In this document: in pieces, positions 980 to 20,730 of the stretch | Layout of the letters: every line of letters starts with the position of its first letter | Position numbering within the stretch: position 1 is the stretch's first letter | Source of the DNA: Pseudogymnoascus verrucosus | Lineage: Eukaryota | Assembly (NCBI GenBank): GCA_001662655.1 | Contig: KV460207.1 | Direction: 5' to 3' (one strand) | DNA: 64,000 nt | The notes under the pieces: generated by a model | What the model was told of the DNA's origin: nothing | Database searches by the model: none | The model's input: only the letters and a program-made list of their open reading frames with translations | Translations under genes and position numbers: made by a program

Positions 980-3245
980 ATGACGGACGTTAAGCAGCAC
1001 TCGTTCAACCCTTCGCAGAAGTCTGGATTCGACGGCTCTGTAAAGAACATACAAAAGAAGACATCAGAGACTCAAGAGCAAGCACCTAGCGAAGTCGACG
1101 ATGTAGAGAGCCGTGCGGGCACAGAGTCTGTGGGAGGCGAGTCGCAGGCCATACAAGCAGGAAGCGTCGATAACGAAGGACATGTTATTGACGCCGATGG
1201 TCACATCATCGGGAACGTCACAGGGGAGAATGCATCACAGCTTGAGGGGTCTATCGTAGATCAACAGGGTGATGTGATAGATACCGAAGGAAATGTCATT
1301 GGAAGTGCGGAGCCACAGGAAGCCGGTGAAGCAGAAACCCCCGAGAAAGATCTTCCGGACGTATCAATCCTTGAGGGAAAGAAGGTAAACAAGGGAGGAA
1401 ACGTCGTTGACGACAGCGGCAAACTATATGGACGTATCGTCGACGGGGATATTTCTAAGTTGGTTGGAAAGAAGGTGGATTCCAGAGGAAAAATCTGGAA
1501 CGATTCAGGAAAAGTCATTGGAAGCGCGGAAGTGATACCCATCGATGAACGAGATGAGTCCTCTGGTGCACCCTTCGAAGATTTTCCCAATGCCGTCGTC
1601 AACAAGGACGGAACCGTCGCCTCGGATGGCCAGGTAGTTGGGAAGCTCGTTGACGGCGACGCTAAGAAACTCTCTGGCAAGAAGGTCGACAAGGATGGCG
1701 AGGTCATTGATAACGTCGGGAACGTTGTAGGAAAGGCTGAGCGATGGGAAGAAGAAGATGCCCCTGAGCCAGAAGCGGCCGATTTATCTTCTTTAGCTGG
1801 CAAGCGAGTGAATAAGCTAGGTAACGTGGTGGATGGCACAGGTGCCATCTATGGAAGACTCGTTGAAGGCGATCCCAAGAAGCTCGCAGGGAGGATGTGC
1901 GATAAGAACGGAGATGTTAGAGGCGAAGGTGGCGATGTTGTCGGCCGCGCTGAATTGGTTCCCGAGAGCGAGCGTGAAGGCATGAAGCAGGGACCATTTG
2001 CGGACTTCAATGGCGCAACCGTGAAAAAAGATGGCAAGGTAGAAGCTAGTGGCACAGTTGTTGGGCGTCTCATCGAAGGAGACGCAAAGAAGCTGTTTGG
2101 AAAGCCGGTGGATGCCGACGGTGACGTATTAGACTCCAATGGCAATCAGCTGGGGAAAGCTGAGAGATGGGAGGAACCCGAGAAAGAGAAGTCGAAGCAC
2201 GCAGCATCAGGCTTGAAGGTGAACCGCGAAGGGAACGTCGTGGGCGAAAATGGAGATACTATCGCCAAACTGACAGATGGTGATGTGAGCCGCTGTGCAG
2301 GTAAGGAGATTGATGACGATGGCGATGTCGTTGATGGAAAGAACCAACGCATTGGATCCGTCACACTCCTCGCAGATATTCCAGCCCCTGAGGAGCCCAA
2401 GGAATCACCAGAGGAAGCCGAGAAGCGCAAGCAGACGGAGCAAGACAAAAAGCTCGCCGCTCAGATGGCCACCTGTGTCCAGCAGTCACTGGACAAGATC
2501 CAGCCAATCCTCAAGATGATCACCGAGGTAAGCAAGCCGTTCCCTGCATACCAGTATTAAGCTAACAAAAGTAGGCTATTGAATTAGCCGAACGCCAGCC
2601 TAAGGAGGAACTTGATGAGCAGAAACTTGTCGACACTGTCAAGCCACTCCTCGAGCAAGGCGGCGAGATTTTGCAGGAAGCCAATGGTGTAATCCGTGGC
2701 CTTGATCCTGATGGAAGGATTCAGGCAAATGCCAAGCACAAGAGCGCCTCCCGCGAGGCAACACCAGAGGAGCACCGTCTTGCTGAGGTGTTGAAGGAGG
2801 TGAGTGTTATGAATATTTATATAATTTCTATAATGCTAACATTGAGATAGTTGACTGGCAGCGTGAGCCAGACGATTGAGGGGGCTAAGAAAAAGGTGGC
2901 GGGCATGCCCCACGCAAAGAAAGAGCTGAACCCACTCTGGGGTCTCCTTGCAGGTGCGTAAAATCTATCACATGTCTGAGTTCGGATGCTAACCTGTGTA
3001 CAGAGCCACTTGGACAAATCCTTGCTGCCGTTGGATTACTCCTGTCTGGCGTTCTTGGTCTAGTCGGCAAATTGGTATGTTTACTCCTGCAACATATGCG
3101 GAAGAACTACGCTAATATATTATAGCTTTCTGGATTAGGACTCGGTGGGCTGCTTGACAATCTTTTGGGCGGACTAGGGATTAAGGGCATCCTCGATGGT
3201 CTTGGCCTTGGGTCACTCACGAAGTCGTTGACGGGAAAGAAGTAG
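980..3245 (+). CDS. Repeat-rich hydrophilic protein (DUF3659/LEA-domain-like repeats, with a helical and Gly/Leu-rich C-terminus); 5 exons
   Basis: Long ORF with repeated 'G.VVD..G..vG.l.eGD' units. ATG at 980. GT-AG introns at 2528-2574 and 2800-2850, plus two more near 2955-3003 and 3075-3125. Spliced exons read AIELAERQPKEELDEQKLVDTVKPLL... and end at TAG 3243-3245. Confidence 0.8.
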
Positions 3246-4257
3246 ATGCTTCTTGTGTACTTCTTACCAAATTGCTAGTTTAATGTAGAATCTTACGAAT
3301 TGTAATTGTTTGCTACAACGAAACCTATTGATATTAATTGTGAACTGCTGTAATCTACTGCCGCTGGTTATTCGATTCAAATATATTGTGTTTGAAACTA
3401 CGTTAAATTACATAATCTTAGCCATTTCGCTAGGATTTAAAATCATTGCGGTAGGTAATGTATTTATTATATAATTAAATGCTATATGCTACGCTAAATT
3501 AGATAAGCTATAGTATAAAAAGGCAAGTTGTAAGAAAACTAAGGCGTTAAAATCGATCTTGAGCTCGCTCCTAGCAACATCATCATTATCCTTCTCATCA
3601 TCGCCCCTCTCTCCATCCCATCCCCTCTCCTCAACCTTCATCCCCCCTATATTCCCCTTGTATCCCTTTGTATCCCATCCCGCCCCCCCCGTCCCCCGTC
3701 TGCTCTCCACCACCCTCATCTCACGATCTACCGCTTCGCACCCCACCCCCAACCCCACCGAAATGCCCCCCCCCCTTCCCCCACCACCCACTCTCTAGGT
3801 CAAATACTCTCCCTCTACTGGATATTTCTCTAGCCCCCATCCTACCGAGATAGAGGCCTAGAGATAATATCCGCGGCTGTCATGCGCTCTGACCTCATCC
3901 CGAGGATAGACTTTCTCCCTCCGGTTCAAGTACTTGGTAACTAACTCGTCGGCAGACGCTAGATTTATGATTGCAAACCTAAGTAACTAGGAGCGCACCG
4001 GGAAACTTGAGTGGCTGTAGAGCCGAGACGTTCCAAAGTTATAAAGTTAGAAGTGAGAAATTGAGAGCACAAGTCTCCCAGCCAATATCTTTTGTCCGAT
4101 TTCGGACTTGTACATGTTTCGTAGGTCAGTCTGCTAGTCATTGAGATATTTAACCAACAACGTCTTCGTGGCAGTTGACCAGGAGCGTGTCGCTAGATCC
4201 GGGGTTGCCTTGTCGGCCTGTCGGGCCTCGCGGCTCCCGTCGTGACTATTCTCTACG

Positions 4258-5750
4258 ATGAGTCGGATGACAAGGACATTGCGAACTTGCGAAACCTGTG
4301 TTCACTGCGTACAGTGTGATGAGAATTTTGAGAGGGTTGGTTTTGTCATTAAAGCGCCTGCTCAGCCTAATCCTATCATCCTCGTCAAGACCAGAATGCA
4401 TGATAGCAATCTCATCGTATATGAACTACCATCTCCCAAAACTCTGCTGATAGCGGAATATCCTCCACAAGCAGCAACTTCTCTCTCCTCTCCTTAGGCG
4501 TTGCTGGAAAAACGTATGTTAAAATTTCATTCAACACATATCTGAGCTTTGGCGAGCCATAAGATAAAAACTCCATGTTCTTGAGGCCAGTCTGGATGTC
4601 CTCTGGGTCTCCCTCTCTTCTATCGAGGCCAATTACGTCGAAGGCGTTCAGTCGTGGCCTGCAAGACTAGCCTTGCGAAAGATCTGCTATAATCGCTCTA
4701 AGTGAGTAGAGATGTAGGAGTCTGAAAGATAATGACTGGTAGGTTGATCGAAATCGAGGGGTTCTGAAATCGTGAAACACAAAGTAGTAGATTAAGGACA
4801 TAAATCCGAAAGATAGTAACTGGTAGGCTGGTAGAAACTGAGGGGCTCTTGACCACATGGGGACTTTGCTGAAGTCCAGCCATCCCACAACAAGGGGGAA
4901 AAAATCATAAGGGACGAAATTCCAGGCAGCGATTTCGACCCTGCCGATGCCCCTGACGACGTATCTAAATATGATTCTGACGGGCCTTCTCTCTCTTGGG
5001 CGCAACTAGAGAATATGACCTGGTCATCCTCCGGTTGTTGGATGAAGACAAAGATGAATATCAGGACATGGTCGGAGGTATCCATGATGATATCATCCCT
5101 GACTCTGACGACAAGAGTATTGTAGATGCTGATGCGGACTCTAATTATGGATTAGACGCCATAGACGGCGAATTGGGCACCGTCGACAAGACATTCTCCG
5201 GTGTTCCGGTCCAGATACCTCACGTCGAAACCGATGTGACAGATTCTAGACCCGTGTCAGAGGTATACTGCAGGGGTTAGAGGATTTTGCCCGCAAAATC
5301 AGATATGATAAGGCACAGGAAAAGCCAACGTATCCGTTGAGCTTTAGCTCTGGTCTATCCTCCGTACTATATCGACAGAATAATTCATGGTAGTCTATAG
5401 GGCTGCCGTCCTCGAGAAAGTCCAATTGGTGCTCGGAAGGGAAACTCCGACGCCGGAAGCAGTTATAGCATTGGCTAGGTACTGGAGGCGCCATAAGAAC
5501 GGAGGCGTGTATGTAGATTTAGCATATACGAAATCAAGCAATGACCATGCATGCTATATTGGGTCTACTACTCGTGAATTCTCCAAGCGGATAAGGGGGC
5601 GTTTAAGAATCTTAAGTAAATATACTATACCATCCAAAACCACCGCCCTTATAGTTGGAGATGATGAATATGCTGTGTGTAGAAATGCTAGATACGATAA
5701 AGATTAAAGGTGAGAGTTAGCAATTATAAGAGTTGAGAACTTCGACAGGC
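4258..5750 (+). pseudogene. Decayed coding region containing a GIY-YIG-like nuclease motif
   Basis: Short same-strand ORF fragments (4258-4497, 4996-5280, 5387-5707) broken by stops and frameshifts. The last fragment contains GGVYVDL...CYIGSTTREFSKR, which fits the GIY...YIG...R signature. Confidence 0.45.
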
Positions 5751-5859
5751 CCTGTGCTGTCGTGCGCCCTGGGTAGTCGCTCTCCCTACTGTAGTTTGGA
5801 AACGTCACTGATTATGAACCCATTTTTTATTTGTAGCTATCTTGCTATTAATCGTCCGT

Positions 5860-6185
5860 GTTGGTCGCTCTCTACAACTATGGTTTGCAACGTTGCTCTG
5901 TCAAACTAGATTGTTAACAGGCTCTAATATGAGGACGGCGAGTCTAAGTAATCGAAGACCAGTGTTTTAGTTGTAGTAATTATAAACCTATAGCTTATTT
6001 ACAGCCACTATGCGATTTATCGCCCTTGTTAGTTGCTCTCCTTCATTGTCGTTTGCAACGTTACTCTACCGAACTAGATTGTCGATAGGTGCGAATATAA
6101 AAATTGCAACTCTAAGTGATTAAGGACTAATGTTTTAGTTATAGTGATTATAAACCCTTATTTTTCTTATGGCTACTGTGCCATT
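5860..6185. repeat. Degenerate ~168-bp tandem duplication
   Basis: 5860-6020 and 6028-6185 share the blocks gtttgcaacgtt(g/a)ctct, aactagattgt, tctaagt, tgttttagtt.tagt and attataaacc. A partial third copy lies near 5770. Confidence 0.75.
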
Positions 6186-6480
6186 GCGCATGTAGGGATA
6201 ACAATTCTGGTATTTGCGCTAAAGTGATTCATTCTAGCAGGACTTATAAATATTGTCTTGAAATCGTTTTAAAGCCTACGTCCATTTACTGTGCCATTGC
6301 GCATAATGAGCTATAAAACTCGAGCATTTGCGCTAAACAGGTCTTGATTTACTGTGCCATTGTGCATTATTAGCTATAAACTCGAGAATTTGCTCTAAAC
6401 TGGCTTTGATTTACTGTGTCATTGCCCATTATGACCTACAAATGTGACATATATATCATTTATACTCGAGATTTTTGCAC
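6175..6480. repeat. Array of ~60-bp degenerate repeats (actgtgccatTGCGCA..agctataaaac..tttgcgctaaa)
   Basis: Four to five copies, starting near 6175, 6287, 6350 and 6411. Confidence 0.75.
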
Positions 6481-7220
6481 TCTTTGATCTCGGCGTCGTC
6501 GAAGATACATGCAAATCCGATAATAGACGCTGAATTCTCAACTGGATCATCGACAGGCGCGAATATGAAGCCCCAAAGTCCCCCACACTACTTCCGGCCC
6601 CAAAGTCGCCTACAACCTATCCATATGTAGAGGATGCAGATGAGGATATGTCCAGCGTTCCTAATCTCGCAGTTGAAAGTAACAACGTCTGCGACTTTCA
6701 CATCCTCGCCATCCAGGAACAATAGTAAGAAGATAAACGATAGCGAGAAGAGCAACGACACCAAGAAGATCAATGGCAGCGAGAAGAGCAACTACAGCAA
6801 AAAGAACCAAGCAACAGCAAGAAAGAACCAAGGAGTACCGCTAGCAAGGAGTATCGATCCCAGCACCCAAGTCTTCAAAGCGCATAGCACAGTTCTGCAA
6901 CTTGAGGGCAGTACTGTTTACTAATAAAGTTGCTGTGCCAACGAGGATTCAGAGTGCGAAAACGCTTTGTGGGAAAGGCAAGTACACGACTACCAAAATC
7001 CGGCCGAAGATTGAGATGTCGTATCCCAGAGCGTCGTGGAGAAAGCGGGGATACCATCATTGACAGACAAGGTATTTCCGTCGTCCCACAAAGCAAGACT
7101 GGGAAAGTTTTACATGGCCAAGCCAAGGTAAGTACAGGACTACCAAAATCAAACCGTGGGTAAAGAGCTCCCGAAATTTGATATATCGATCACATTATGT
7201 GCCCAATGCCAAAGGGCAAC

Positions 7221-7240
7221 AAAAAAAAAATGACAAAAAA
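7221..7240 (-). terminator. RNA polymerase III oligo-T terminator of the 5S gene
   Basis: Plus-strand A6 and A10 runs sit immediately downstream of the 5S 3' end as read on the minus strand. Confidence 0.75.
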
Positions 7241-7302
7241 CATACAACAGTGGGTATTCGCTGGTGGCCACCCACCCAACTACTAATCCACCGATCTCAA
7301 GC
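7240..7302 (-). rRNA. 5S rRNA gene, 3' half (interrupted)
   Basis: Minus strand reads GCTTGAGATCGGTGGATTAGTAGTTGGGTGGGTGGCCACCAGCGAATACCCACTGTTGTATGT, a typical ascomycete 5S 3' half, followed by oligo-T tracts. Confidence 0.93.
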
Positions 7303-7976
7303 ATCCACTTGCTTTTTACTTCGGCCGGCCTAGTGGGTGAGCCCTTGCTGCCTTAAGGGGTGAAGCGAGGGTGAGCAGGGTGTGAGCGGGGTGAGGGGAC
7401 GCGATGATTTCGTGTCATTATCGCGTCAACGTCGTAATAGTACCGGAGTGTAGCTGTTTTAGTTCACGTACCTTGTTCAGCCTTGCGTTATCCCACCAAA
7501 GACCGTCACTAAACTGAGGGGCACAGTACACATCAGCCTCACTAGGCAGCATTCTTCAAGTACGTATGTGAAGTTGGGGTACAATACAGTGACTAGAGAT
7601 ATAATTTGCCTATGTGATTGGGGATCGCTGTGTTCTCAATAGTTATCTTATTTCGACAGAGGCCTAGAGCTTCTAGTCGAATTTAATAATGGAATAGCGC
7701 TATGCAACGCAGGTGAGGCGCCTGGCTGCAGCTGTTAGGACGTAGATGGCTGAAACAATTCGGAGCTCATATTTGGATTGCGCACTTAACTCACGTTCAA
7801 AGAGGTTTCTAATATCTGTTCCACTATCCTCTTGTAGACCACCTGCCACGCTGTCTCCCTTGCTCTTAATTAAGCATTTTTCTCAACTATGGTTCGTCTG
7901 TTAGACCAAAAACAAGTAACTCGAGTGGGAAATCGACAGAATTAAGCAGTTGACCTATACAATTGAGCCCTCTACT

Positions 7977-9629
7977 TCAAACCTGTTCATGATCTAACAC
8001 AGAGTCCTCATCAACAGTAAACTTCTCCCCATTTTCTGACATGCGGTTGACAGACAGGCGATGGTTTGCCAGGACATCGCCATTTCCAGCGGCCTTGTAC
8101 GTAGCCTCCATTTTGGTATAAAGCGGGCTGCTACTCTCGAACATAGCCTCGATTGATTCGAGGGAACGACCTGCAGTCTCGGGATAGAGGAAATAGACGA
8201 TGGGGCACCAGAGCAGATTGAGGCCGGCGAAGAGGAAGTAGGTGCGCGACTCGAGGACCCCGAACATGATAGGGTTTACGAGAACGGTCATACCGACGCC
8301 GATGGCCCATCCCGTGATTCCAAAGCCGTTGCCTTGGGCGCGCATCTCGGAGGGGAAGATCTCAGTAGGGATGAGGAATGCGACGGTGCCCCAAGTCGAG
8401 GCATAGATCAAGTTAAAGAGGAAGAGCATGGTGACAGCTGCCGGGGCGATTTGTGCGGCTTTGCTAGGATCCGCACGTGAGCCTTCGTACAAAGCGGCTG
8501 CGACTAGGTTCACGAGGAAGAGGCCGAAGGCGCCGCCGATTAGACACGTACGCCGACCAAGACGGTCTACGATCTGTGCGGATATTATGGTGCCGACTAT
8601 ACCGATGGTGTTGAGGCCTCCGGCAAGACCGCTCTGCTTGACAGAACTGTATCCGGCTTGCTTCAAGAGAACGGGACTGTACGCTGTCACCGCGGTAATT
8701 CCGGTCCATGAAGCCATGATTTGCAGAAAAAGACATAGCCATGCACGGCGACCCAGGTGAGCACCGTTAGTAGCGCGGCCGAGGAGGACCTTTGCGAATT
8801 GGACAGGGGAGCTAGGCTTGGATTCTTCGGCAACAGCGCAAATTTCAGCGAATTCCCTCTCGACATCTGGGCCCTTGTTGCCACGGATATGCTCCAAGAC
8901 CTCCTTAGCCTCATCAAGACGGCCGACAGAGGCCAGGAAGCGAGGAGAGTCGGGGAGAAACTTGATGCCAACCATCAGAGTTATAGCAGGGAGACACTGG
9001 AAAGCTAGGAGAAATCTCCATCTGACCTCTGAATAGCCACCGTCGACGAATGAGAGGCCAAAGTCAAGCCAGTAGGCTACGGAGATACCCAGGTAGTTTG
9101 CGATGAAGACGTATCCAAGGAATCCACCACGGTGGCCCGCAGATGATACTTCGGCGATGTAGACGGGAACGATGGCAGTCAATGCTCCGGTGCCCAGGCC
9201 CGTAACGACACGGGCAACGACAATGAAGTCGGAGCTCTGTGTGGCGGCCTGGAGGGCACCTCCGACCAGGGCGAATACTGCTGCGATGAGGAGACCGTTA
9301 ATACGACCAATGCGATCAGCGATCCAGCCGCCGACGAATGCTCCGACGATGGCGCCTAAGTAGTAGATAGAGACGATGCCGCCTTGGTGAGTGGTGTCTG
9401 TGACTGTCCCATCTGGAAGTCCAATGCCGACCTCAGCTACGTAGTTGGGCGAGGCATTCACGCCTCCCATAACACCTGTAAGGTTGGTTGTTAGTGACCA
9501 GGACATATATTTCTGGTCGAGAGACTCACCTTGGTCATATCCCTCGAAAAAAATGGCAATGAGAGAGAAAGTCTGAATGAATATGGAGAGCTGTTTGGGC
9601 GACAGCTTCTTCCAGAAATGTTGAAACAT
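7977..9629 (-). CDS. MFS sugar porter (sugar/inositol transporter family)
   Basis: Motifs FFEGYDQG, ADRIGRI, RVVTGLGTG, PDSPRFL, VDRLGRR and YPETAGRSLE, with about 12 hydrophobic segments. One in-frame 54-nt intron at 9476-9529. Confidence 0.93.
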   Translation of the reverse strand: MFQHFWKKLSPKQLSIFIQTFSLIAIFFEGYDQGESLDQKYMSWSLTTNLTGVMGGVNASPNYVAEVGIGLPDGTVTDTTHQGGIVSIYYLGAIVGAFVGGWIADRIGRINGLLIAAVFALVGGALQAATQSSDFIVVARVVTGLGTGALTAIVPVYIAEVSSAGHRGGFLGYVFIANYLGISVAYWLDFGLSFVDGGYSEVRWRFLLAFQCLPAITLMVGIKFLPDSPRFLASVGRLDEAKEVLEHIRGNKGPDVEREFAEICAVAEESKPSSPVQFAKVLLGRATNGAHLGRRAWLCLFLQIMASWTGITAVTAYSPVLLKQAGYSSVKQSGLAGGLNTIGIVGTIISAQIVDRLGRRTCLIGGAFGLFLVNLVAAALYEGSRADPSKAAQIAPAAVTMLFLFNLIYASTWGTVAFLIPTEIFPSEMRAQGNGFGITGWAIGVGMTVLVNPIMFGVLESRTYFLFAGLNLLWCPIVYFLYPETAGRSLESIEAMFESSSPLYTKMEATYKAAGNGDVLANHRLSVNRMSENGEKFTVDEDSVLDHEQV

Positions 9630-9870
9630 AGCGAGGTAGGGGGCAGTATCGATTGTCTAGAACCAAAAGGATGTAATTGATGTGTTGTACAGTACGTACA
9701 GAGTCGGCCTTTAAAAGGAAAACGAAGAGCGAACGGGGTGTCCTTTAAATACTCCATGAGATGACAGTTTACATACTCTCACACACGGCAATAAGGGAGT
9801 AACATGAAAGCTGAACTTGTGATCCTCACTTTTTGTGAGTCGGTCATCCTCTCTCCACACTTTTACTTGG

Positions 9871-9959
9871 AGATCCGGAGAACTGGAGAATTGTGGAGAT
9901 GGGTGGGTGTGGCAGGGTGTGGCAAATACATCTCCACAATTCTCCAGTTCTCCGGATCT
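9871..9959. promoter_or_regulatory. Perfect 31-bp inverted repeat in the divergent promoter; each arm holds three SYGGRG (CreA/Cre1-type) motifs
   Basis: agatccggagaactggagaattgtggagatg (9871-9901) and its exact reverse complement (9929-9959), with a 27-nt spacer. The arms contain CCGGAG, CTGGAG and GTGGAG. The repeat is certain; the regulatory role is inferred. Confidence 0.55.
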
Positions 9960-10371
9960 GCACGAGGATAGCCATTGGCTGTGCAGACTCCCGTGTTATC
10001 CCATAAGCGTTTACACGTTTAACCGTCTAAACAGTTTAAACATTTAACCGTTTAAGCATTCAAGCGGGTTACAATTTCGCCCATATGCAATACTCCGAAG
10101 TCCTTGGCAAAGCCAACCTCGATGATTCAAGGACAAGTTGCGAACAGCCGTAAGCATTAAGACCACTTTAAAGCGTAGAATGGGAACCCACTGACTATCT
10201 TTTTCACATTATTCATGATTTCGGTTATGTACTGCCTTTCTTCCCCCTTCTTTTATCTCGACATCAAATCAAGTATATATTGACTTAAGCACCATCTTTC
10301 TAAGTCTCTCTAGTTTTTGTATATACCACAATTTATTCATAGCGGGGACTCCATAGAGCGGTAATATAGCA

Positions 10372-11790
10372 ATGCCCTCTTCAACTACAAACGGAGCCAG
10401 CAACGGCTACGGAAATGGCAGTACAAATGGCATCAATGTGCCGTCCGATGCGGCGTTCGACTTGACAGTCCTCGGCTTGAACAGCGGGACTTCCATGGTT
10501 AGTTTCCACACTGTTATATCACCGCCGGTACATGCTGACAGCAGATTTTAGGATGGCATCGACTGCGCACTCTGCCGATTTCGACAGGAGACGCCCAGCT
10601 CTCCAATGCAATTCGAGCTGTTGAAATACAGCGAAATCCCTCTCGAGCCGGTAATCAAGAAACGAGTCATGAATATGATCCTTCACAATAAAACCACACC
10701 AGAAGAGCTATCGGAAGTCAATGTGCTACTGGGAGAGACATTTGCGTCTGCAGTCAAGGAATTCACAAAAGAACATGGGCTTCAACTGACAGATATTGAT
10801 GTTGTTGGTTCCCACGGACAGACTATTTGGTTGCTATCAATGCCAGAGGAAGGACAAGTCAAGTCTGCTCTCACAATGGCCGAGGGATCATTTATCGCAG
10901 CACGTACCGGTATTACAACAGTCACGGACTTCAGAGTCTCAGATCAGGCGGCTGGACGCCAAGGCGCACCTCTCATCGCCTTTTTCGACGCCCTGGTACT
11001 TCATCACCCCACTAAACTACGAGCTTGCCAGAACATCGGCGGCATCGCTAATGTGTGCTTTATTCCGCCGGATCACCAAGGTGGCGTAGACGCTTGTTAT
11101 GACTTTGATACGGGTCCTGGGAACGTTTTCATTGATGCCGTAGTACGTCACTATACAAATGGTGAGCAGGAATATGACAGAGATGGAAAGATGGGCAAGG
11201 CTGGGCAAGTGGATCAGGAACTTGTGGACGACTTTATGAAGCACAAATACTTTGGTCTGGAGCCACCGAAAACCACAGGGCGGGAAGTTTTTCGAGACAC
11301 ACTCGCCTTCGAATTTATCAAGAAGGCAGAGCAGAAGGGGCTGTCACCGAACGACGTGGTGGCGTCGATTACTAGAGTTACTGCACAAGCTATCGTTGAT
11401 CACTACCAACGTTATGCGCCATCGCAAAACATCGACGAGATTTTCATGTGCGGCGGCGGAGCATACAACCCAAATATCGCAGCGTTCATCCAAAAAAATT
11501 ATCCGAATACTAAGATCATGATGTTAGATGCCGCTGGTATTCCAGGGAGTGCAAAGGAAGCAATCACCTTTGCATGGCAGGCTATGGAAGCTGTCGTCGG
11601 ACGCTCCATCCCAGTTCCGACCAGAGTCGAGACAAGACAGGAGTATGTTTTAGGGAAGGTGTCTCCCGGCAAGAATTATAGAGAGGTCATGAGGAAGGGA
11701 ATACTCTTTGGTGGTAAGGCGGATCATCTCAGTCCTGTAAAGGAGCTGGTCAACTACGTTGAGGGGAAGGTTTTCGATAACAAGTGGTGA
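10372..11790 (+). CDS. lgk: Levoglucosan kinase (AnmK/LGK family anhydrosugar kinase)
   Basis: ATG at 10372 and intron at 10498-10551. The spliced protein has [79 protein letters not shown] and CGGGAYN. These closely match the Lipomyces starkeyi levoglucosan kinase sequence as I recall it. Confidence 0.88.
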
Positions 11791-12081
11791 CGAGATGTTG
11801 GGTGACTGTTTCGTATTCTGTGTAATTTAGTGATTACTTTGCGTAGGTAATTTCTTCGCTTGTGAAATACATACATATACGTTAATATAATGACATCTAT
11901 CTCGTCTCTCGGGCCATGCCTCCAAAGCACACGTCGCATGGATTGCATCCGATATGCATCCGATATGCGGGGTAAACCGCACTAGAAGCGGGACGGAAAA
12001 TAGTTCCGGAACAAAGGTTACAGTTAGCACAGCTAGAAATGAACTCTTCGATTGCGCAATCTTCGCGGCTACGACCTCTTA

Positions 12082-14464
12082 ATGCAGCAAGCTTCTGCCT
12101 CTGAGCCTATAGTCCTAGATTCAATGAATTCAATGAACACCGCTAATACAGAGAGATTAAATGCAAGGCCATCAAAATCTCCCTTTGATGTGGCTCGGCC
12201 GAGGAAGCTAAGACGGGTTACAAGAGCATGCGATTTTTGCCACAGACGGAGCACCCGATGTAAACAGAGTCAAGACGATAGCCGATGTCAAAACTGTCTA
12301 GATTTTGATATTGCGTGTACCTTTGAGAGACCGGCGAGGAAGCGAGGAAGTAAGCGGCAAGGACAGGCGCAAGTGGACGAAGATGGGTCTCCATCCGGAG
12401 AACATGCAAATCTACTCCTACAGATGATGAACAGTCAGGTTCATGATGATGAAGCGTACTCCCACGACGAAAGGAATAAGAGAACTGCGGAGGCGTTGAT
12501 TACATTTCCATTAGCGACAGAGTACAGAGACATGGTGTTAGACAACCCTGATATAATTCAAGATCTCGTCAGTGTCTACTTCGAGGTGGTTTATCCAATG
12601 TAGGTCATGGCTTCATCTGTCTGTACTCTATTATGCTTTACCTTGAAACTATGAAGCTGAGGCCTAGAAAGTTAACTTTCTCAGATTTCCTTTCTTTCAT
12701 CGTCCAACTTTTCTCCAAAAGATTACCATGAGAAGGTACCTTTCTGATCGAGGACTGTTCGCTGTTGTTATGGCTATTTGTGCTCTTGCATCTGCTCGGG
12801 CTCGAGATGGAGCACTTCTTCCAGGTCAATGGGAGCCGTCCCATTTCCGCCATCCCTCTTCAGAGTCCTTCTACTCAGCTGCGCGAGATGTCACTCCGCA
12901 TCTCAATCTCAGTGCGATGGAAGGCATTAATTGGATGCGGATGTGTGCCCTGCTATCACTTCTCGGGATTCAAAATGGAAATATTAATGTTATGCATCAG
13001 TATCTTGGTCTTTATCATACTTTGGCAGCTATAGATGGCTTGCACGACGAGAAAAACTGGCCAAAAGATATTAGCATTATTGAGATTGAGGAGAGAAGAA
13101 GACTGGTAAATGACATCTTACTTTCCTGTTAAAAATTGCTAATGGTCCTATAAGTTTTGGTCAATGTACACATTAGAGGTCTATTCTTCCCTTGTCTGGG
13201 TTGGAATTACCCGCTGCCGACAATCGCAATGTCGGGTGTTTTATCCTAGTGAAGTGGATGACGAACGCTTTTCTGACGAGGATTTTTCAAACTTATTACC
13301 ACAAAGATCTCCGCATCAAGGAGTTGAAGTAAGGCCAGGGCCGGCCATTGACACCTCCTCTTGGCTTCATGGTTGGAACTTCACGACAGATCTTTACGTA
13401 GTCCTTGAACATGCCATGGACGGCTTTCATCGCCGCCGACCACGAACAATAGCACATTTCTCGCCCAATAATATGTTCAATAGGGTCGCGCCATCGCAAT
13501 CTACGGTTTTGGATAAAGTCATGTGGATGCACCAGCAATTACCAGACAGATTCAAGGAAATACAGTCTGTGACATCTGACACAGGAGAAGATAGGCTGAG
13601 CTTCCAGGCGGCGAATATCGCTGCAACACTGCAAGTAAGTCATCCACATCAACAAGAAATAGCATGATACTTACGTTTATAAAGCTCGTTAGAATGGTGT
13701 TGTTTACAGCAGAAGAAGCAACTGTAGACCAAAAGTGTGCCATTGCCCGCGAACTGCTTGATGGATTCGCCCAAGTGCCAGTGTTCTTCCTAAGAGCAAT
13801 TTCGTCACCATTAGTATGTTTGATTCTAAAACTTCAGGCGTATCGCTAACAGTTGTAAGCTTTATCATTTAGCAGGTATCGGCTCCATCTTGGGTTCCGT
13901 CATGGAAGGCCCACTTTCAAAATCTTCCTATTTGCAGGCTAGGACCGTATTGTAAGCATCTTCCATCTCAATCAAGGCTAAACATGGCTCATTGTATACC
14001 TCATTAGACTTTCGATGGCCGACCTCCTGGCCAGCCTCGAGATAGGCATGACGCGAACCTCTGGCGCAACGCAGCGTCTCCGGTCACAAGTAACCCGGAT
14101 CGACGAGTATATGGCAGCACAGCAGCAACAAAATTTCGCACAATCCCCATCAGCACTCCCGTCATGTGTTCCGAGCATGCCGCATTCAAATCTACGTGAA
14201 CATGTCGATATGTTTCAAGAGGAGCAACAACAATCTCGCAGAGGAGTTCAGCAAGTAGGATACGAATTTCCTTCAAATTCCCAAGGCACAGGACATTTGG
14301 GGAATAGGCAGGACTACGTGCAGATTCAAATGCCGACGGAGACATATAATTTCAAGGGCATGCCTAGTGGAATCGATGGTCTAGATGAGACTGGTCAGCA
14401 GTTACAGTTTCAACTGCCGCCAGGGTTATTGGATGATTGGCCGTGGCTTTTTGATATGGCGTAA
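12082..14464 (+). CDS. Zn(II)2Cys6 fungal transcription factor with a fungal-specific middle domain (about 6 exons)
   Basis: RACDFCHRRSTRCKQSQDDSRCQNCLDFDIACTF zinc cluster, followed by YFEVVYP|..FFHRPTF and EERRRL|FWSMYTLEVY. GT-AG introns start near 12600, 13106, 13634, 13813 and 13952. Acidic C-terminal tail LDDWPWLFDMA. Confidence 0.9.
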
Positions 14465-15039
14465 GGATGTAAGTATGTAAGAGTAGTGTAGGTCACCTGC
14501 GATCTATCATATAGAGTTTGTTTATTTACGCATGGAGCAGGTATGAAAGGGGGCTTAGGTATTGACCGTGATGGTATAATCTATCATATATTGTTCTATT
14601 AGTTTTGATAGCCTTGCCATAACCGCCTTGCACAGCAGACACGCGCGTTACCGGGATTTTTCTTCTGCTCTCAGTCTGTTATTGTTATTCCTTATCACGG
14701 ATGAACCCGCTGACCCTGATAATCCTCAACACTATGATTCTCTAGCTGTTCTACCAGACAGGAAAGTGAAGAATCGACATTTTCCGAAGTCAGGACGTAC
14801 TTTTGGCAAAGCTTGATTATCGATTAGGCGGAGCTACAGAGATATGGAGAATCTGGAGAGCCTAGGTATTAGACAATTTCACGTTGAATTAATATCAAAG
14901 AGTTGCAGCAAGTGCTCCTTCATCGTAACACACGGTACATCTTCAGCGTGTATGCTCTTCTAAGACCTACTATCTTGCTGCTGGAAGGCTGCATTACAGC
15001 CCCACCAGTCAAGCAAGTTTTGAATATTTCTTCTCGTGT

Positions 15040-15370
15040 TCAGCTTGTTTGAACACGAATATCCTCTAGACAGACCAATAGTGCCCTTCTCTCAGCCCAG
15101 TCCACCAAAGCGTATCCTGCCATGTTCAGTAGCTGGACCGCCGTTGCCCAACTGATGGCATGGCGATTGTCGATGCTATTTGCAACAACTCGAGTTGCGT
15201 AAATCCGTGCAATTTCCCCTTGCCCGTTCGAACCTGCTAGCTCTTTCTTGGCAGCTGCTCTCTGGCAGAGAGAGGATGAGAAGGAAATGAGCGAGATTGA
15301 ACATTTGCATCGCTGCGCGGACAGTTTCATTGATGTAGAGACTGATAAGAAAAGGGTTCCCGTCATTCTC
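15040..15370 (-). pseudogene. Fragment resembling the C-terminal part of a fungal transcription-factor domain
   Basis: ARIYATRVVANS...WATAVQLLNMAGYALVDWAERRALLVCLEDIRVQT, with no recognisable 5' part. The similarity is from memory only. Confidence 0.35.
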
Positions 15371-15496
15371 TAGGCTTGCATAGGTAACTAAAGGCTGACA
15401 CTCTAATGGTTGATGTTGTTCGTCCGCTTACAGATCTTGCCAGCCTGTAAATCTTTCTTGAGAGAATGTAATCTCTTTGCGGACTTAAAGGAAGGA

Positions 15497-15972
15497 CTAT
15501 ATGTTAATTAGAGCTGCAATAAGAGAGGGTACAATGCATACACTAGCAGCATTACTAACGACATTCTTGTCTATCTTAGACTTTATAATGTGGTTTTAAT
15601 AACCTGAAAATCTGAACTAGATATTGACCACACTGTCAACTGTTAGAAGTTCGCTAATTTGACCATGTTGTGATGAAGCATAGTATTTAACAAAGTCTTA
15701 GTATAGGTTGCTATCATGCTATAGCAGCGCCTTCTCTAGACACTTCACAGCAAGAAACCTAATATCTCCATTAGTAGCCTGTACACAGTGTTAAGTCTCA
15801 CGTACCCTTAAAATATAATTGCTACTTCCACGTGCTTGTTTTTAGTAGCGTTAGTGAGAGTGTGCTGTTCAATATAGGTTTTCACGTTCTGTTAATTAGG
15901 TGTGAGCTCTGCAGAAAATATCCTTGCTTCTTTGCCATATTAATATGATCCTGTATATAGAGTACCTTCCAT
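15497..15972 (-). pseudogene. Truncated, RIP-mutated Starship captain (DUF3435 tyrosine recombinase)-like N-terminal remnant
   Basis: TATAAA near 16065 and ATG at 15972. Exons 15972-15806 and 15758-15542 are joined by a GT-AG intron (15805-15759), and a second donor GTATGC lies at 15541. The translation ...Y*DFVKYYASSQHGQISELLTVDSVVNI*FRFSGY*NHIIKSKID... fits the captain pattern F..Y.....G.I...PT..SV...W..F once TAG/TAA are read as mutated TGG. Confidence 0.6.
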
Positions 15973-16310
15973 CCTATTATAGCAGGAAGTAGGTCCTTGA
16001 AAAGGAGATGAGAATGTTGTAGATAGCAGACTGCGAAAAGTGAAGGTGGTGGGGGGTCTGCCTTTATACTACTTTCAAGCCTCACCCACGCTCACCTAGC
16101 CATGGCCATCTAAAGTCGCGGTGCATCGCGTTCATCGCGTCCATCGCTTCTCAATACGAGATCCACACCTTGCGTTGTTGATGTGGTCGCCGTCACGTAG
16201 CTGAGGGAGATAACCGGATTATCGTAAAAGCATCAAAAACTTGAGGCGGCGACGCTCAGATTTGACACTATGCCTATTGGCACGATTGAGAGTAAAAAGC
16301 AAGTAGATTA

Positions 16311-16371
16311 CAAGCTTGTGTATGGCAGAGCGGACGGGATGCCCAATTCTCTTGAGTCTATGGTCGTATGT
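16311..16371 (-). rRNA. 5S rRNA gene, 5' half (interrupted)
   Basis: Minus strand reads ACATACGACCATAGACTCAAGAGAATTGGGCATCCCGTCCGCTCTGCCATACACAAGCTTG. Joined to 7297-7240 it gives a 119-nt 5S with helix I and helix II pairing. Confidence 0.93.
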
Positions 16372-17072
16372 GATAACTTCTCTCTTGCTAGGGTATAAGT
16401 ACTGTTAGGCGCTGAGGTGTATGACGATTTCGACAGAGGCCCCCGGCCGAAGGTTTGGATGTTGTATCCCAGAGCACCGTGGAGGAATCGGCAATACCAG
16501 AATTGACAGATGATGAGTTGATTCGATTTCATAAGGCTAGTCTTGGGAAATACTATCTAGCTGAGCCAGGAAAATTCGAAGCTGAATGGGAGCTCGCGAT
16601 TTCAGCGTGCAAGGGGAGAAGCCCCGTGTCACCGATTTTATTTCTCACCACCGCTCTCCTATCTCGTCGCCGCTCCATTTCTCGTTACCCGCTGCTTTTC
16701 TCACCCTCTACTCCCTTTTCTCACCACCCACCCCATTTCTCACCGTCAACCCCACTGTCTCGCTTCCACCCCCCCCATTTCTTGCTACCCCCTTCTCCGT
16801 TGTAGTCATTGTCATTGACTTCCCGGAAGAAGTCAATGACAATGACTGGTCGTGGAGTCCTATAGCAGCACTGAAACAATTCTCATCGTTGCCGTTGGAA
16901 AGCATCACTGCCCCAGGTATGAAGATATAGATCTCGAGCCATCATCGCCTGCCACCTTCAATCACAATCACAAGCACGGCATGTCACATAGCAAATCAAA
17001 AAATTGAACGTAAACTTCTAATTCATTCAACTAACAACATAAATCTAGTTCCTCATCTCCACACACACCTCT

Positions 17073-18643
17073 CTACAAACGGCTCTCCTTCTGCGGCGCG
17101 GCGTTCTTCTCCGTCGCCGTCTTAATCGCCTCACCCAGCGCCTTATCCACACGTGAAAACATCTCGTAAGTGCGCTGTCTCGTATCCTCCCTCGCCGCCG
17201 ACAAATGCCCCGAGACATTCCCAATAAAGTTAGCCTGCTGCCCCTCAGTGCGTCCAAGGACATCCCACAAGCCCTTAGCCTGCACGTAGTCCTCAGCCAC
17301 AACCTCATTCAGGTGCATGACCGCTTGGGCGGACCACTTCTGGTGGGGGTCGTTGGTGATGGGGGAGTGTTGCTTGTATGTCAGAGTGCGGTAAGAGGAG
17401 GGGTAGTTGGGGTTAGCGCCGTAGTTCCCGTTGACCGCCATCGCGCCATCGCGCTGGAAGGGGTTGAACGCGTGGAGGGGCGCGTTGACGGGGATCTGCT
17501 GGTAGTTGACACCCAGGCGATGGCGGTGGGTATCTGGGTAGGAGAAGAGGCGAGATTGGAGGACAGGGTCGGCGGAGGGCTCGACGCCAGGGACGAGGTG
17601 GGAGGGGGAGAAAGCGACCTGTTCGATTTCGGCGAAGTAGTTCTCGGGGTTCTTGTTGAGGGTGAACTTGCCGAAGGGGCGGAGGGGGACGTCCTTCTGG
17701 GGCCAGACTTTGGTGAGGTCGAAGACGTTCCAGCGGAACTTCTCGGCTTGCTCGGGCGAGAGGACTTGCACGTAGACAGTCCAGCTGGGGTAGTCGCCCT
17801 TCTCGATCGACTCGAAGAGGTCTTGGGTGTGCCAGTCTGGGTTCTCGCTGGCGAGCTTGCCGGCTTCCGCATTGTTGAAGGTCTTGCTGCCTTGGTCGGT
17901 CTTGAGGTGGACTTGCACGTAGTTGAAGGTCCCGTCGGGCTTGTGCCACTTGTGGGTGTGGCCCGAGTAGCCGTTCATGTGGCGGTACGAGTATGGGGTT
18001 CCGCGGTCAGAGAAGAGGTGCATGACCTGGTGGATGGCCTCTTGGTGGGTGGAGAGGTAGTCCCAGAACATGGTGGCGTCCTTCAGGTTGGTTTGGGGGT
18101 TGCGCTTCTGGGTGTGGATGAAGAGAGGGAACTTTCCGGGGTCGCGCAAGAAGAAGATGGGTGTGTTGTTGTAGACCCAGTCCCAATTGCCCTCCTCGGT
18201 GTAGAACTTGATGGAGAAGCCGCGGGGATCGCGAGCAGAATCTGCGGAGCCCTTCTCACCACCGACGGTCGAGAAACGGGTCACGGCCTTGGTCTTCTTG
18301 CCAACAGTCTTCAACATGTCGACGACGGTGATATCAGAGACTGGGAAGTATTAGCTATTTGCCATTCTCATTTAAAGCCTAGAAGCAACTTACTATCATG
18401 TGTAACCTCGAACTCGCCATAGGCACCGGCACCCTTGGCGTGGACAACGCGCTCTGGGATACGCTCGCGGTCGAAGTGAGCGAGCTGGTCGATTAAGTGG
18501 AAGTCCTGGAGAAGGAGCGGGCCATTCGGACCTCCTGCTCTTTGGTAGGCCTCGGCATGGTGAACTGGAGCACCGCTGGATGTGGTATAGGTGGGTTGTT
18601 GGTTGTACTTGAAGGTGGAGGCGGGCGACTCGTCAGAACCCAT
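17073..18643 (-). CDS. Small-subunit monofunctional heme catalase, probably peroxisomal
   Basis: [38 protein letters not shown] and [14 protein letters not shown]. Intron at 18341-18393. C-terminal SRL is a PTS1-type signal. Confidence 0.96.
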
Positions 18644-19779
18644 GGTTGCTCTGGTTTGTTGCTGTGAAGCGGATATATGAGAGTAGGTTATAACTTCTTA
18701 TACTTGTATGAAGTCCAATGAATGAAAGACTTATTCAGATATGAGAGAAGAGACGAATAAACGGTGAAAGAGATGATTATTCTAGGTCAAACAGAGATGA
18801 ACGAGGGGAAAAAGAGGAAGAGAACGGTGAACGACGCAACTGTCTATATATATGGGAAGTATGGCGGAACCCGACTGGTACGTAATTGAGGTACCCTCGT
18901 TCTAGTATGGGGGGGGAGGGAGACCTGGGTCTCAGGGCGGGGTACCTCAGTGTTCAACCAATCAGAGCCGTCAATTTGCAAGCAACCGTCCGTAACCCTC
19001 TCGGACTTTGGCCAATGTAACCAAGAATTAATGACCTAAGGCCACAAGGCCACCACTCCTCCCCCGTTCAAACACACCTCTTACAGCTGTAAGAGTATCA
19101 TGATTGGTTGGTTTATTAACTTCCTCGGTCCTTGGCTGTTATAGTATCACAGCTGCATCCAGTAACCAGACCTGTCTCATAGTGCGAGTCGTGCTCACTC
19201 AACAGAATATTCCCGTGCAGTAGTACTATATTATATCCCTTGTGCCGAAGTTATACCAGCTATACCAGCTACCAGTAACTAAATTAATAGGAGTACGTAA
19301 CTTGGGGTAGTATTAGTATCCCTATACCGGTATGAGGAATGGACTCTTACTCTGTCTTCCTTCATTCTAACTCGGACACTTTCAGTCGGTCCTGTTCTAG
19401 CCTCTACTTCTTACCAAAGCAAGTTATATTACCTGTTGAGGAAAGAGACCCCGCACTCACCTTATTCCCGCCGCCCGGATGACGCCAGTCTCCGCCTTTA
19501 TCAAGCAATCCAGCGCCCGTGCACGAACGGGGTCCCGCCTACCTATCGTGGGAGTACTCCTATCGTGGTATGTAGTTCCGAGTCTAGGTTATACCACAAC
19601 ACTAAAAATGTGAGTGGGCTTCGGACCGGTGCTCTAGAACGCATGAGAGCTTTATAATCGTTGTGCGTTTGATGTATAATGTGATATGTAACAAATAGAA
19701 GAAGCTGTGGCGAGAATTACGCTGCGCTGAGGAATCCGGGCTTTGTTCCTCTGTACTAGTATGAGGGTTCTTAAAAGAA

Positions 19780-20730
19780 AATTGCGCATACGTCGGGTTT
19801 TATAGCCCGTTTTGCGCAATATACGATGTTTTTCGTGTTGAAGTCTAACCAACAGTCCCTGAGCCGGAACCAACCTAAGGATGGATATATGGGCTCTGTC
19901 TGTCCTCTATGCTAGCTAGTACGGACATGGTTTTGCGCAGTAATATAGTAATATGGGGCTATCAACGAATATATACATACATACATAGATATTGAATCCG
20001 TTCTGAATAAATTCGTTATACTTTCTTCGTGTTGAAGTCTAACCAACAGTCCCTGCCATAATCGATAACCAAGCTGCAATAAGGAATGGATATATATAGG
20101 CTCTGTCCCTCCATACTAGTATGAGGAAAAACGGGATTTTTTAAAAATTACGCAATTTTAAAGTTTTGTAGCTTGTTTTGCGCAAAACAAAAGAAAATGA
20201 GGCTATATTCACAAATACATCCATCATCCATCACTAATACAGTTTCAAAACGTCCAACCTTCGTTCTAAATTATAGAATTTGGCGCAGATTCGGGATTTT
20301 CTAACTCATTTTGCGCAAAACCTACAATAAAGATTTTAACCTTCGTTCTAGCTTGAAGAGGATTTGGCGCAGAATCCAAGTTTTATAGCTCGTTTTGCAC
20401 AATTCTACGATGTTGATCGTGTGCAGTTTTTGCGCAGCTTCCAGTTTTTATACCCCATTCTGCGCAGGATGCCAACAGTCACGGTTGACAGTAACGCTCG
20501 GTGGTAGTAACGTCCGCTGGCAGTAAAGCTAGTTCAATTTTGGCGCAGCTTCCGGTTTTTATAATCCATCTTGCGCATATTGCTAACAGTAACGCTGGCG
20601 GGCAGTGACGCTGGCAGAAACGCTTACTCGGCATTAGCGCAGACTCCGTATTTATAGTCCATCATTCTATGGATATTGCTAGTGCTACTAGTAACGCCAG
20701 CATTGGGCGCAGATTCTCACTTTTATAGGC
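19780..20730. repeat. Dispersed array of ~40-bp degenerate units (tttGGCGCAg..ttttatag...ttTTGCGCA), plus a duplicated segment
   Basis: Units near 19781, 20148, 20279, 20362, 20427, 20538, 20633 and 20702. The segment tcgtgttgaagtctaaccaacagtccctg occurs at both ~19833 and ~20027. Confidence 0.75.

Follow-up and report, generated by a model that had tools for sequence, protein, structure and literature searches.

How does a complete set of genes for the use of one sugar come to lie inside a 5S rRNA gene? The question is raised by a 64-kb stretch of DNA from Pseudogymnoascus verrucosus (contig KV460207.1 of assembly GCA_001662655.1), hereafter the window, in which positions are numbered from the first letter. 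At 7977-14464, the window contains three genes (the trio), each of which is intact based on gene models and Pfam, for a sugar porter of the major facilitator superfamily (MFS), a kinase of the AnmK family, and a Zn2Cys6 transcription factor. All three are contained in an insert of 9,008 bp (7303-16310) that splits one 5S rRNA gene. We think it probable that the locus is a cluster for levoglucosan, a sugar released by burning plant matter, which is carried as cargo by a 9,008-bp element that has no captain (the DUF3435 tyrosine recombinase of Starship elements) and that was probably moved in trans. A sequence-only reading of the same DNA had proposed a mobile levoglucosan-utilization module delivered by a Starship; the module and its mobility survived the present analysis, while the Starship label did not.

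The trio lies in an insert that splits a 5S rRNA gene

Window 1-20000 was compared with contigs from four public runs (X4, X11, X22, and X24). The insert and its boundaries comprise the following features, given with a strand where the feature has one:

7239-7302, minus strand: 5S rRNA gene, 3' half (Rfam 5S_rRNA positions ~57-120, 21.6 bits, E 0.011, 5'-truncated)
7298-7302: direct repeat CAAGC, left copy (sequence read; contig joints)
7303-7320, plus strand: left terminal inverted repeat, ATCCACTTGCTTTTTACT (17/18 against the reverse complement of 16291-16308)
7303-8001: left arm (no Pfam match; G-rich GGTGAG minisatellite at ~7335-7400)
14894-15484, minus strand: relic of a second Zn2Cys6 (Fungal_trans_2) gene, C-terminal third, in two frames (protein matches)
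15487-16310: right arm (no Pfam match; C-rich CTCACC repeats at ~16080-16100)
16291-16308, minus strand: right terminal inverted repeat, followed by TA at 16309-16310 before CAAGC
16311-16315: direct repeat CAAGC, right copy (sequence read; contig joints)
16311-16371, minus strand: 5S rRNA gene, 5' half (Rfam 5S_rRNA from position 1, 15.6 bits, E 0.43, 3'-truncated)

The two 5S halves have the same orientation and complementary model ranges, and when joined they give 120 nt with a 5-nt overlap. The letters of the 5' half track the consensus to about model position 62, and a T-run follows the 3' half on the minus strand. Both halves score below the Rfam gathering score of 38 and were detected only with 111-nt stretches as the query; Rfam returned nothing over 1-24 kb at E up to 1, nor over the whole window at the gathering score. 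The depth of the runs over approximately 7236-7302 and 16311-16373 was 1,600-8,400 (1,600-8,200 over the left half and 2,900-8,400 over the right half) compared to 20-170 elsewhere, even in a run that lacks the locus, and loose contig ends with varied flanks are present at 7236 and at 16371-16373. X22 covers just the 5S pieces and a few short stretches and says nothing on the locus. In intact 5S copies of relatives, 7297 joins 16311 directly, five letters fit on either side, and CAAGC is present once; it forms one half of the 8-bp palindrome CAAGCTTG in the middle of the intact gene.

The inverted ends are 18 nt long and match at 17 of 18 positions, a score that none of 2,000 random pairs from the window equals, and the pattern is found at two places in the whole window where 0 are expected. 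A contig of X4 (~98-99% identical) spans the left junction from 7283 to 8382 and includes 20 nt of 5S together with repeat, end, and arm; the left junction is, therefore, not an artifact of the assembly of the window. That the trio sits on a mobile element, as the sequence-only reading had it, is thus borne out by a discrete 5S-bounded insert with a direct repeat and inverted ends.

No Pfam family was found in open reading frames (ORFs) of at least 32 aa in the arms, the G-rich and C-rich repeat tracts of which are mutually inverted. The relic lies between the trio and the right arm. Its ORF at 15043-15369 (minus strand) matches 21 proteins with a best E of 7.7e-14; five of the eight matches that were scanned (519, 552, 427, 525, and 556 aa) have Fungal_trans_2 over most of their length, and three of these five also carry Zn_clus. 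Using tblastn, about residues 314-511 of the 519-residue protein were placed at 15484-14894, with nothing further upstream, and this partial placement in two frames supports that the relic gene was cut and is probably frame-shifted. The description of the trio as the only intact cargo is right, because the sole other coding remnant of the insert is this broken gene. The indices TpA/ApT and (CA+TG)/(AC+GT) for repeat-induced point mutation (RIP) revealed no RIP-like stretch over 1-24 kb.

The trio encodes a predicted pathway for levoglucosan

The genes and the region between the two that diverge are as follows:

7977-9629, minus strand: MFS sugar porter gene, candidate levoglucosan importer (Pfam Sugar_tr, E 9e-92)
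9630-10371: divergent promoter region common to the porter and kinase genes, 742 bp (start-codon spacing)
9868-9962: near-perfect palindrome of 95 nt inside the promoter region (34-nt arms, 97% complementary)
10372-11790, plus strand: putative levoglucosan kinase gene of the AnmK family, PF03702 (Pfam AnmK, E 2e-81; match to PDB 4yh5)
12082-14464, plus strand: Zn2Cys6 transcription factor gene, presumed regulator of the cluster (Pfam Zn_clus and Fungal_trans)

The porter gene runs from an ATG at 9629 to a stop codon at 7979-7977 with a single in-frame intron of 54 nt (9476-9529), and its 532-aa product shares 511 identical residues with a 522-aa model from one Pseudogymnoascus strain. The kinase gene has two exons (10372-10497 and 10552-11790) separated by an intron at 10498-10551 and encodes 454 aa. 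In the spliced model, the factor gene has six exons over 12082-14464 and a product of 698 aa. When this product is aligned with a 697-aa Pseudogymnoascus protein, 608 of 701 columns are shared. It also has 493 identical residues in common with a 497-aa model from the strain that provided the 522-aa porter model, and it is 91-95% identical to two further Pseudogymnoascus proteins. All three intact genes are, thus, where the sequence-only reading had placed them, and the divergent promoter that it put at ~740 bp measures 742 bp from the porter ATG to the kinase ATG.

Exon 2 of the kinase gene covers positions 13-366 of the 367 positions of the AnmK profile, while the LNSGTSM stretch that makes up the preceding part of the profile comes from exon 1. 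The exon 2 product aligns end to end with PDB 4yh5, "Levoglucosan kinase" of Lipomyces starkeyi (713 bits, E 6.3e-214), compared to 157 bits (E 4.1e-45) for the best match among bacterial anhydro-MurNAc kinases, AnmK 3cqy. Five structures of the L. starkeyi enzyme were matched (4yh5, 4zfv, 4zlu, 5bsb, and 5bvc), and ~309 of 412 aligned columns were counted as identical (~75%). The close match to the Lipomyces enzyme that the sequence-only reading proposed therefore holds. The DFDTGPGN stretch is unchanged between the window kinase and 4yh5 and presumably contains the catalytic aspartate, which we take to be Asp212 of the Lipomyces enzyme, a designation that was not found in our literature search. 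Judged from sequence, these data support that the window kinase is an orthologue of the characterized levoglucosan kinase.

The 120 best database matches of the kinase are 76-90% identical to it and come from Leotiomycetes, Eurotiomycetes, Dothideomycetes, one lichen fungus, and two basidiomycetes; the best named matches are from Helotiales, with a protein of Mollisia scopiformis at 88%. From these 120 matches, 44 named sequences were picked by hand and used together with the window kinase for a tree, which leaves aside metagenome proteins without a name as well as many Aspergillus and Penicillium rows that are near-duplicates. In this tree, the window kinase is placed inside a mostly Leotiomycete group (support 89/95), and the class labels require 7 changes compared to 22.4 when shuffled. 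Because the tree follows taxonomy at the class level, no distant donor is indicated, and we rejected a recent import of the kinase from another class.

Two side observations concern the kinase matches. First, a basidiomycete kinase, that of Lyophyllum shimeji (80% identity to the window kinase), nests among Eurotiomycetes beside Thermoascus (98/89), which reflects either transfer into the mushroom or contamination of the assembly. Second, the 120 best matches (best 90%) include no Pseudogymnoascus kinase, and the locus tags of porter and factor in the closest named strain are two apart; the kinase gene between these tags seems to be missing or mis-called in the deposited annotation.

Based on homology and on the one-step conversion of levoglucosan that has been published (PMC9476349), the pathway would be short. 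The MFS porter would import levoglucosan, the kinase would open the 1,6-anhydro ring and phosphorylate the sugar in a single ATP-dependent step to give glucose 6-phosphate, and the Zn2Cys6 factor would most likely activate the divergent promoter when levoglucosan is present.

The palindrome in this promoter (9868-9962) has a DNA fold of -41.3 kcal/mol (z -12.4). X11 contigs break within it, at 9899/9931, and the stretch is unaligned in X24; it could have arisen as a small hairpin insertion or could serve in regulation. A common CGG...CCG spacing was not found in the kinase-porter intergenic regions of 11 loci.

The kinase and porter genes are neighbors in other fungi

In metagenome data, 23 loci were identified that encode a relative of the kinase. 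A divergent porter gene is located upstream of the kinase gene in all 11 of those with at least 1.3 kb of upstream sequence (the porter of one locus, L016, is merely 39% identical), and the 12 others are too short to show whether a porter gene is present. In named genomes, synteny was read indirectly, via locus tags and contig sizes. Among eight assemblies with serial tags in both match lists, the kinase and porter tags are consecutive in five (Penicillium canariense, P. angulare, P. herquei, Recurvomyces mirabilis, and Zasmidium cellare) and non-consecutive in P. manginii, P. brevicompactum, and Aspergillus hiratsukae, for which the porter matches are weaker (67-68%). In ten more cases, the kinase and porter proteins are encoded on same-sized contigs. 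Taken together, tags, shared contigs, and metagenome loci place the two genes side by side across Eurotiomycetes, Dothideomycetes, and Leotiomycetes.

A relative of the factor was found at a distance of at most 10 kb in five of seven long metagenome loci (29-51% identical per exon, E down to 1e-49); the figures for L008 and L015 are identical, and these two possibly represent one organism. Six named assemblies have the factor gene next to the kinase or porter gene or at a distance of two tags. This distance separates it from the kinase gene in Leptodophora and P. macrosclerotiorum and from the porter gene in a Pseudogymnoascus strain, and the factor gene adjoins the porter gene in Oculimacula, P. 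longicatenatum, and one P. angulare assembly. A single 1,014-aa gene model of A. fumigatiaffinis contains both AnmK and Fungal_trans domains and probably represents two neighboring genes merged by the annotator.

The kinase-porter pair is, thus, tightly linked and the factor loosely linked. Since the pair or the trio recurs in many Pezizomycotina and on metagenome contigs, we conclude that it is a conserved catabolic cluster and not a chance neighborhood. In the sequence-only reading, a trio that never co-occurs elsewhere was named as an outcome that would speak against the module, and the recurrence of trio or pair in other genomes is the opposite of this. The same recurrence replaces the idea of a cassette special to the element by that of a widespread chromosomal kinase-porter pair that is often accompanied by the factor. 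No DUF3435 was detected among 117 ORFs of at least 135 aa in six long metagenome loci, and no 5S gene was detected in these six loci. The neighbors of the cluster vary between the long metagenome loci.

In two of them (L001, 11140-13875; L002, 5347-9718), a second MFS_1 transporter gene and a GH2 beta-mannosidase-like gene follow the kinase gene, which hints that the pair is tied to a wider sugar locus in some fungi.

Among the papers listed from the open-access and bioRxiv literature, none, judged by its title and the start of its abstract, ties a levoglucosan kinase to a neighboring transporter or factor gene. In the same literature, searches for levoglucosan together with Starship returned nothing, and those for a levoglucosan gene cluster and transcription factor in Aspergillus returned one unrelated review only. 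The words adjacent, cluster, and neighbor are absent from the available part of a study on levoglucosan transport in yeast (PMC9476349).

The trio differs in position and divergence between relatives

Two of the runs were informative on the locus in relatives, namely X11 (organism H) and X24 (organism N). On a 69-kb contig of X11, the left flank (6-3311) and the catalase flank (17064-18656) are 2,268 bp apart, and on a 29.7-kb contig of X24, the same two flanks are 3,826 bp apart; in the window, the distance is 13.75 kb. In both relatives, the trio is on contigs other than the one that joins the flanks. In the relatives, the trio is, thus, located elsewhere, and the site appears to be empty, if not base-exactly so.

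In organism N, the porter-kinase block (8002-11830) and the block of factor and relic (11963-15486) are on one 20.4-kb contig, ~7 kb apart and mutually inverted. The likeness to the window stops at 8002 and 15486, and the protein homology of the relic also stops at 15486. In organism H, the likeness extends from 7355, where the contig ends, through the left arm to 14861, i.e., the left arm is joined to the cargo and the right part is different.

The trio of H differs from that of the window at 78 of 2,545 and 163 of 4,931 letters (96.9% and 96.7% identity), while its flanks differ at 138 of 1,593 and 246 of 1,818 letters (91.3% and 86.5%). For N, the trio identities are 92.1%, 91.6%, 88.7%, and 85.1%, and the flank identities are 91.2% (catalase), 84.9%, and 85.6%. 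The flanks of H and N are, thus, equally distant from the window, while the trio of H is ~3-fold closer than that of N. As far as such comparisons go, the closer trio of H fits a transfer or introgression of the element between lineages after their split. Of the earlier suggestion that delivery was possibly horizontal, these signs of movement between lineages stand, while the kinase tree speaks against a distant donor.

X11 and X4 contain multiple copies of pieces of both arms and of the ends, arranged differently. In H, the depth reaches 3-4x that of single-copy DNA over parts of the two arms (~4x in the left-arm bin 7338-8004 and ~3x in the right-arm bin 15342-16008), and the ends are found in other joints; one such joint is a 5S copy in which just the final 57 nt of the right end occupy the same site. 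The match to the 5S 5' half ends exactly at 16311 in 11 X4 contigs and 4 X24 contigs, and related inserts therefore seem to use the same base in other 5S copies.

An element without a captain was probably moved in trans

These observations are combined in the following scheme. The cargo would be two pieces of the chromosomal cluster, picked up within the same fungal group; that there were two is suggested because the corresponding blocks of N are separate and inverted and their likeness stops at 8002 and 15486. The pickup would have cut the neighboring transcription factor gene, leaving the relic, and the arms would be the element's own. The element would then have inserted into CAAGCTTG in the middle of the 5S rRNA gene, duplicating CAAGC. 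As the element contains no enzyme for its own movement, it must be moved in trans.

For the mobilizing enzyme, we put the chances of a 5S-targeting tyrosine recombinase of the captain type at about even, regard a classical DDE transposase as possible but less likely, and leave the remainder to other enzymes. We favor the recombinase for four reasons. First, the insertion site is specific and palindromic. Second, other 5S copies break at the same base. Third, in a circular form of the element, the 7-nt TACAAGC would be flanked by the two 18-nt ends as inverted arms, an arrangement that is typical of recombinase core sites. Fourth, a captain is able to act in trans (PMC10104507), and many captain-type genes are recorded for Pseudogymnoascus genomes in supplementary tables S3-S4 of PMC11162782. 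A more specific version, in which the element is a captain-less Starship satellite with a lox-like circle site that is moved by resident 5S-targeting captains and has passed a complete, self-regulated levoglucosan pathway between Pseudogymnoascus lineages, is put forward only tentatively.

Several points weigh against a captain-less element with a levoglucosan cluster as cargo. On the side of the element, no autonomous partner with the same ends was seen, and the examined part of the supplementary tables of PMC11162782 contained no repeat with the 5S motif and, apart from one 9-mer in an Alternaria end at about chance level, no string matching the ends or repeat of the element. The inverted ends and short duplication fit a DDE transposon equally well, and the 5-bp repeat is shorter than the 6-16 bp of 5S-targeting Starships. 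Among the rows listed, no independent contig spans the right junction. On the side of the relatives, all of the population evidence is drawn from coded organisms and their short-read contigs. In X11 and X24, the flanks are separated by 2.3-3.8 kb with no alignment to the window at ≥80%, and an empty site exact to the base was not seen at the locus in these runs. Moreover, 3.9 kb of the window (3311-7236) are lacking in both relatives and were seen in X4 only, which implies that more than one event separates the loci, and the end of the likeness at 14861 implies that the copy of H is structurally not identical. On the side of the cluster, the function is predicted from homology. The 7- to 9-mers common to the 11 kinase-porter intergenic regions are not above shuffles. 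L003 and L019 contain no relative of the factor within 10 kb; where present in metagenome loci, the factor gene sits beyond the porter gene, while in the window it comes after the kinase gene; and the best factor matches of P. canariense and Cadophora sp. M221 have distant locus tags.

The strongest competing explanation invokes a class II (DDE) element of the ordinary non-autonomous type, which took up host genes and for which 5S is merely a tolerated landing place; the 5-bp repeat would then be a true target-site duplication from staggered cuts. Inverted ends, a short duplication, inverted G-rich subterminal repeats, small size, and arms that are multi-copy in a relative would all be expected of such an element, and ToxTA provides a precedent for a moving Pezizomycotina cargo element that has inverted ends and neither captain nor transposase. 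Set against this are the insertion into the middle of an 8-bp palindrome of a conserved gene, the break at the same base in several other 5S copies, and the absence of any transposase relic from the element. Moreover, no DDE superfamily common in fungi is known to combine 5-bp duplications with site-specific entry into 5S genes. We consider this explanation possible, if rather doubtful.

It is unlikely that the cluster serves another 1,6-anhydro sugar or a related compound (e.g., products of cellobiosan breakdown or an anhydro-amino sugar), with levoglucosan as a side substrate. In the sources as available, assays cover only enzymes of Lipomyces, Aspergillus, and the Rhodotorula type; the substrates of porter and factor are predicted; and GH2 mannosidase-like and second MFS genes adjoin the pair in some loci, all of which leaves room for a different sugar. 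The kinase, in turn, is ~75% identical over its full length, DFDTGPGN included, to an enzyme the structure of which was solved with levoglucosan, and the 76-90% identity that the family maintains between classes speaks for a single conserved substrate.

More improbable still is a true Starship as the carrier of the trio, be it a small Starship or part of a large one with its captain outside the examined stretch. Pfam was used to scan (i) six exon-sized stop-to-stop frames of the trio genes, (ii) 24 of the 109 window frames of at least 120 aa, including all of at least 290 aa, and (iii) ORFs of at least 60 aa at 2.5-8 and 14.4-24 kb as well as ORFs of 32-59 aa in the spacers. PF11917 (DUF3435), DUF3723, FRE, PLP, and NLR were found in none of the scanned frames of insert and window. 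A captain cannot hide outside the insert because one 5S gene bounds both sides and fixes the limits at 7303 and 16310, yet none is present in the scanned ORFs. Starships ranged from 15,020 to 511,117 bp in a 2024 survey (PMC11162782), and the insert is smaller than the smallest of these. Also, the outer flanks are collinear in two relatives. The Starship named in the sequence-only reading is therefore not supported, with no captain in the scans and 9,008 bp against a minimum of 15,020 bp. The instinct behind it has a real basis, as the insert is in a 5S niche: it is flanked by CAAGC direct repeats, has 18-nt terminal inverted repeats, and occupies a site that appears polymorphic among relatives, and of the 222 Starship insertion sites in a curated set, 23% fall within 5S rDNA, where at least five different positions are used.

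Least credible is that there is no mobile element and that a rearrangement or assembly join occurred at 5S repeats, which are dispersed, are at 30-100x single-copy depth, break short-read assemblies, and can mediate ectopic exchange, since the halves are exactly complementary, in the same orientation, with a 5-nt overlap and matching inverted ends, an independent X4 contig covers the left junction, and ectopic 5S exchange would yield whole genes and not halves.

Comparison with known systems

The element shares with 5S-inserting Starships (Voyager and many members of the families Enterprise, Arwing, and Voyager) the 5S site, a repeat that matches a 5S motif, inverted ends, and presence/absence between genomes. 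Enterprise, in particular, has a 5-6-bp repeat in a palindromic target of 10-12 bp, and a palindromic target with a 5-bp repeat is also what the window element has. It differs from these Starships in having no DUF3435, DUF3723, FRE, PLP, or NLR, in its length (9.0 kb vs 15-511 kb), in its repeat (5 bp vs 6-16 bp), and in the position of the site, which is ~61 nt into the 5S gene vs 20 bp for Voyager. At the title/abstract level, no captain-less element of this kind was described under the terms non-autonomous and Starship in the open-access and bioRxiv literature.

A second parallel comes from wheat pathogens, in which ToxTA (formerly ToxhAT), a non-autonomous transposon of 14 kb that carries cargo, has inverted ends and a TA duplication (PMC12506042). 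Like the window element, ToxTA is small, has inverted ends and no working transposase, carries genes that benefit the host, and varies in position between isolates; it is also shared between species at high identity. ToxTA itself has a Tc1/mariner-like TA duplication, carries a virulence effector, and rides inside Starships, while the window element has a 5-bp duplication, a 5S site, and a complete enzyme-transporter-regulator cluster.

With respect to the pathway, the L. starkeyi levoglucosan kinase is of the same AnmK fold family, and the same one-step reaction is expected of the window kinase, which differs in coming from a filamentous ascomycete and in having a 42-residue N-terminal exon with a Gly/Asn-rich start. 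The arrangement of the genes recalls the quinate (qa/qut) cluster, in which a Zn2Cys6 factor gene lies beside the permease and enzyme genes that it controls, with divergent promoters; in contrast to qa/qut, the window cluster needs one enzyme, the position of the regulator gene varies between fungi, and the regulation is presumed. In bacteria, the levoglucosan dehydrogenase pathway LgdA-LgdB1-LgdB2-LgdC uses four enzymes to convert levoglucosan to glucose (PMC7676230). It has the same substrate and ecological role but proceeds by oxidation, elimination, hydration, and reduction; the Lgd proteins are unrelated to those of the window, and no kinase step acts on the anhydro sugar.

The kinase adds a member to an enzyme family that is already known, and the element is a variant on the Starship and ToxTA themes. 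The trio provides named candidates, based on homology, for a native fungal levoglucosan importer and its regulator; in a 2022 yeast study, uptake of levoglucosan was limiting, and a mutated Gal2 and no native transporter was used (PMC9476349). A complete enzyme-transporter-regulator cluster here rides on a 9-kb element without a mobility gene in a niche that is tied to giant Starships, which shows how an entire nutrient pathway can travel between genome sites. If a captain moves the element in trans, Starship biology gains a non-autonomous tier similar to the miniature derivatives of classical transposons, and cargo transfer in fungi would not require giant elements. If the element is indeed a Starship satellite, it would be the first non-autonomous element of Starship type to be described, and no small eukaryotic transposon would have been described before it with a whole catabolic cluster as its only cargo. 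The source genus is found in cold soil, and many strains of it have been sequenced.

Flanking DNA

From 17 kb onward, the window contains housekeeping genes, including those for catalase, Rer1, Paf1, Arf, an actin-related protein, cytochrome c heme lyase, an ABC1 kinase, an AAA ATPase, Dus, and an amino acid permease. To the left of the insert, the region 3311-7236 is poor in ORFs and contains tandem repeats of 168 nt and 62 nt at 5811-6442; no Pfam match was obtained for a 119-aa ORF or other ORFs in 3.3-7.2 kb. Further upstream, the gene at 848-3242 encodes six DUF3659 repeats along with a DUF6987 tail (E 4e-117) and is the fastest-diverging flanking gene among the relatives (85-87% identity).

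Repeats are present on both sides of the insert. A 68-nt direct repeat lies just outside both 5S halves (7000-7067 and 16443-16510; 82% identical, E 4e-12); of the two copies, the left one resembles a broken duplicate, and the right one is in an open frame of 126 codons (16425-16802). At 19300-20730 and 6171-6442, there are mutually inverted arrays of 30-45-nt units in which the motif TTGCGCA/TGCGCAA is abundant (families D1, D3, D4, and I3). Finally, a 44-nt palindrome (91% self-complementary) is located at 16804-16847, between the 5S half and the catalase gene.

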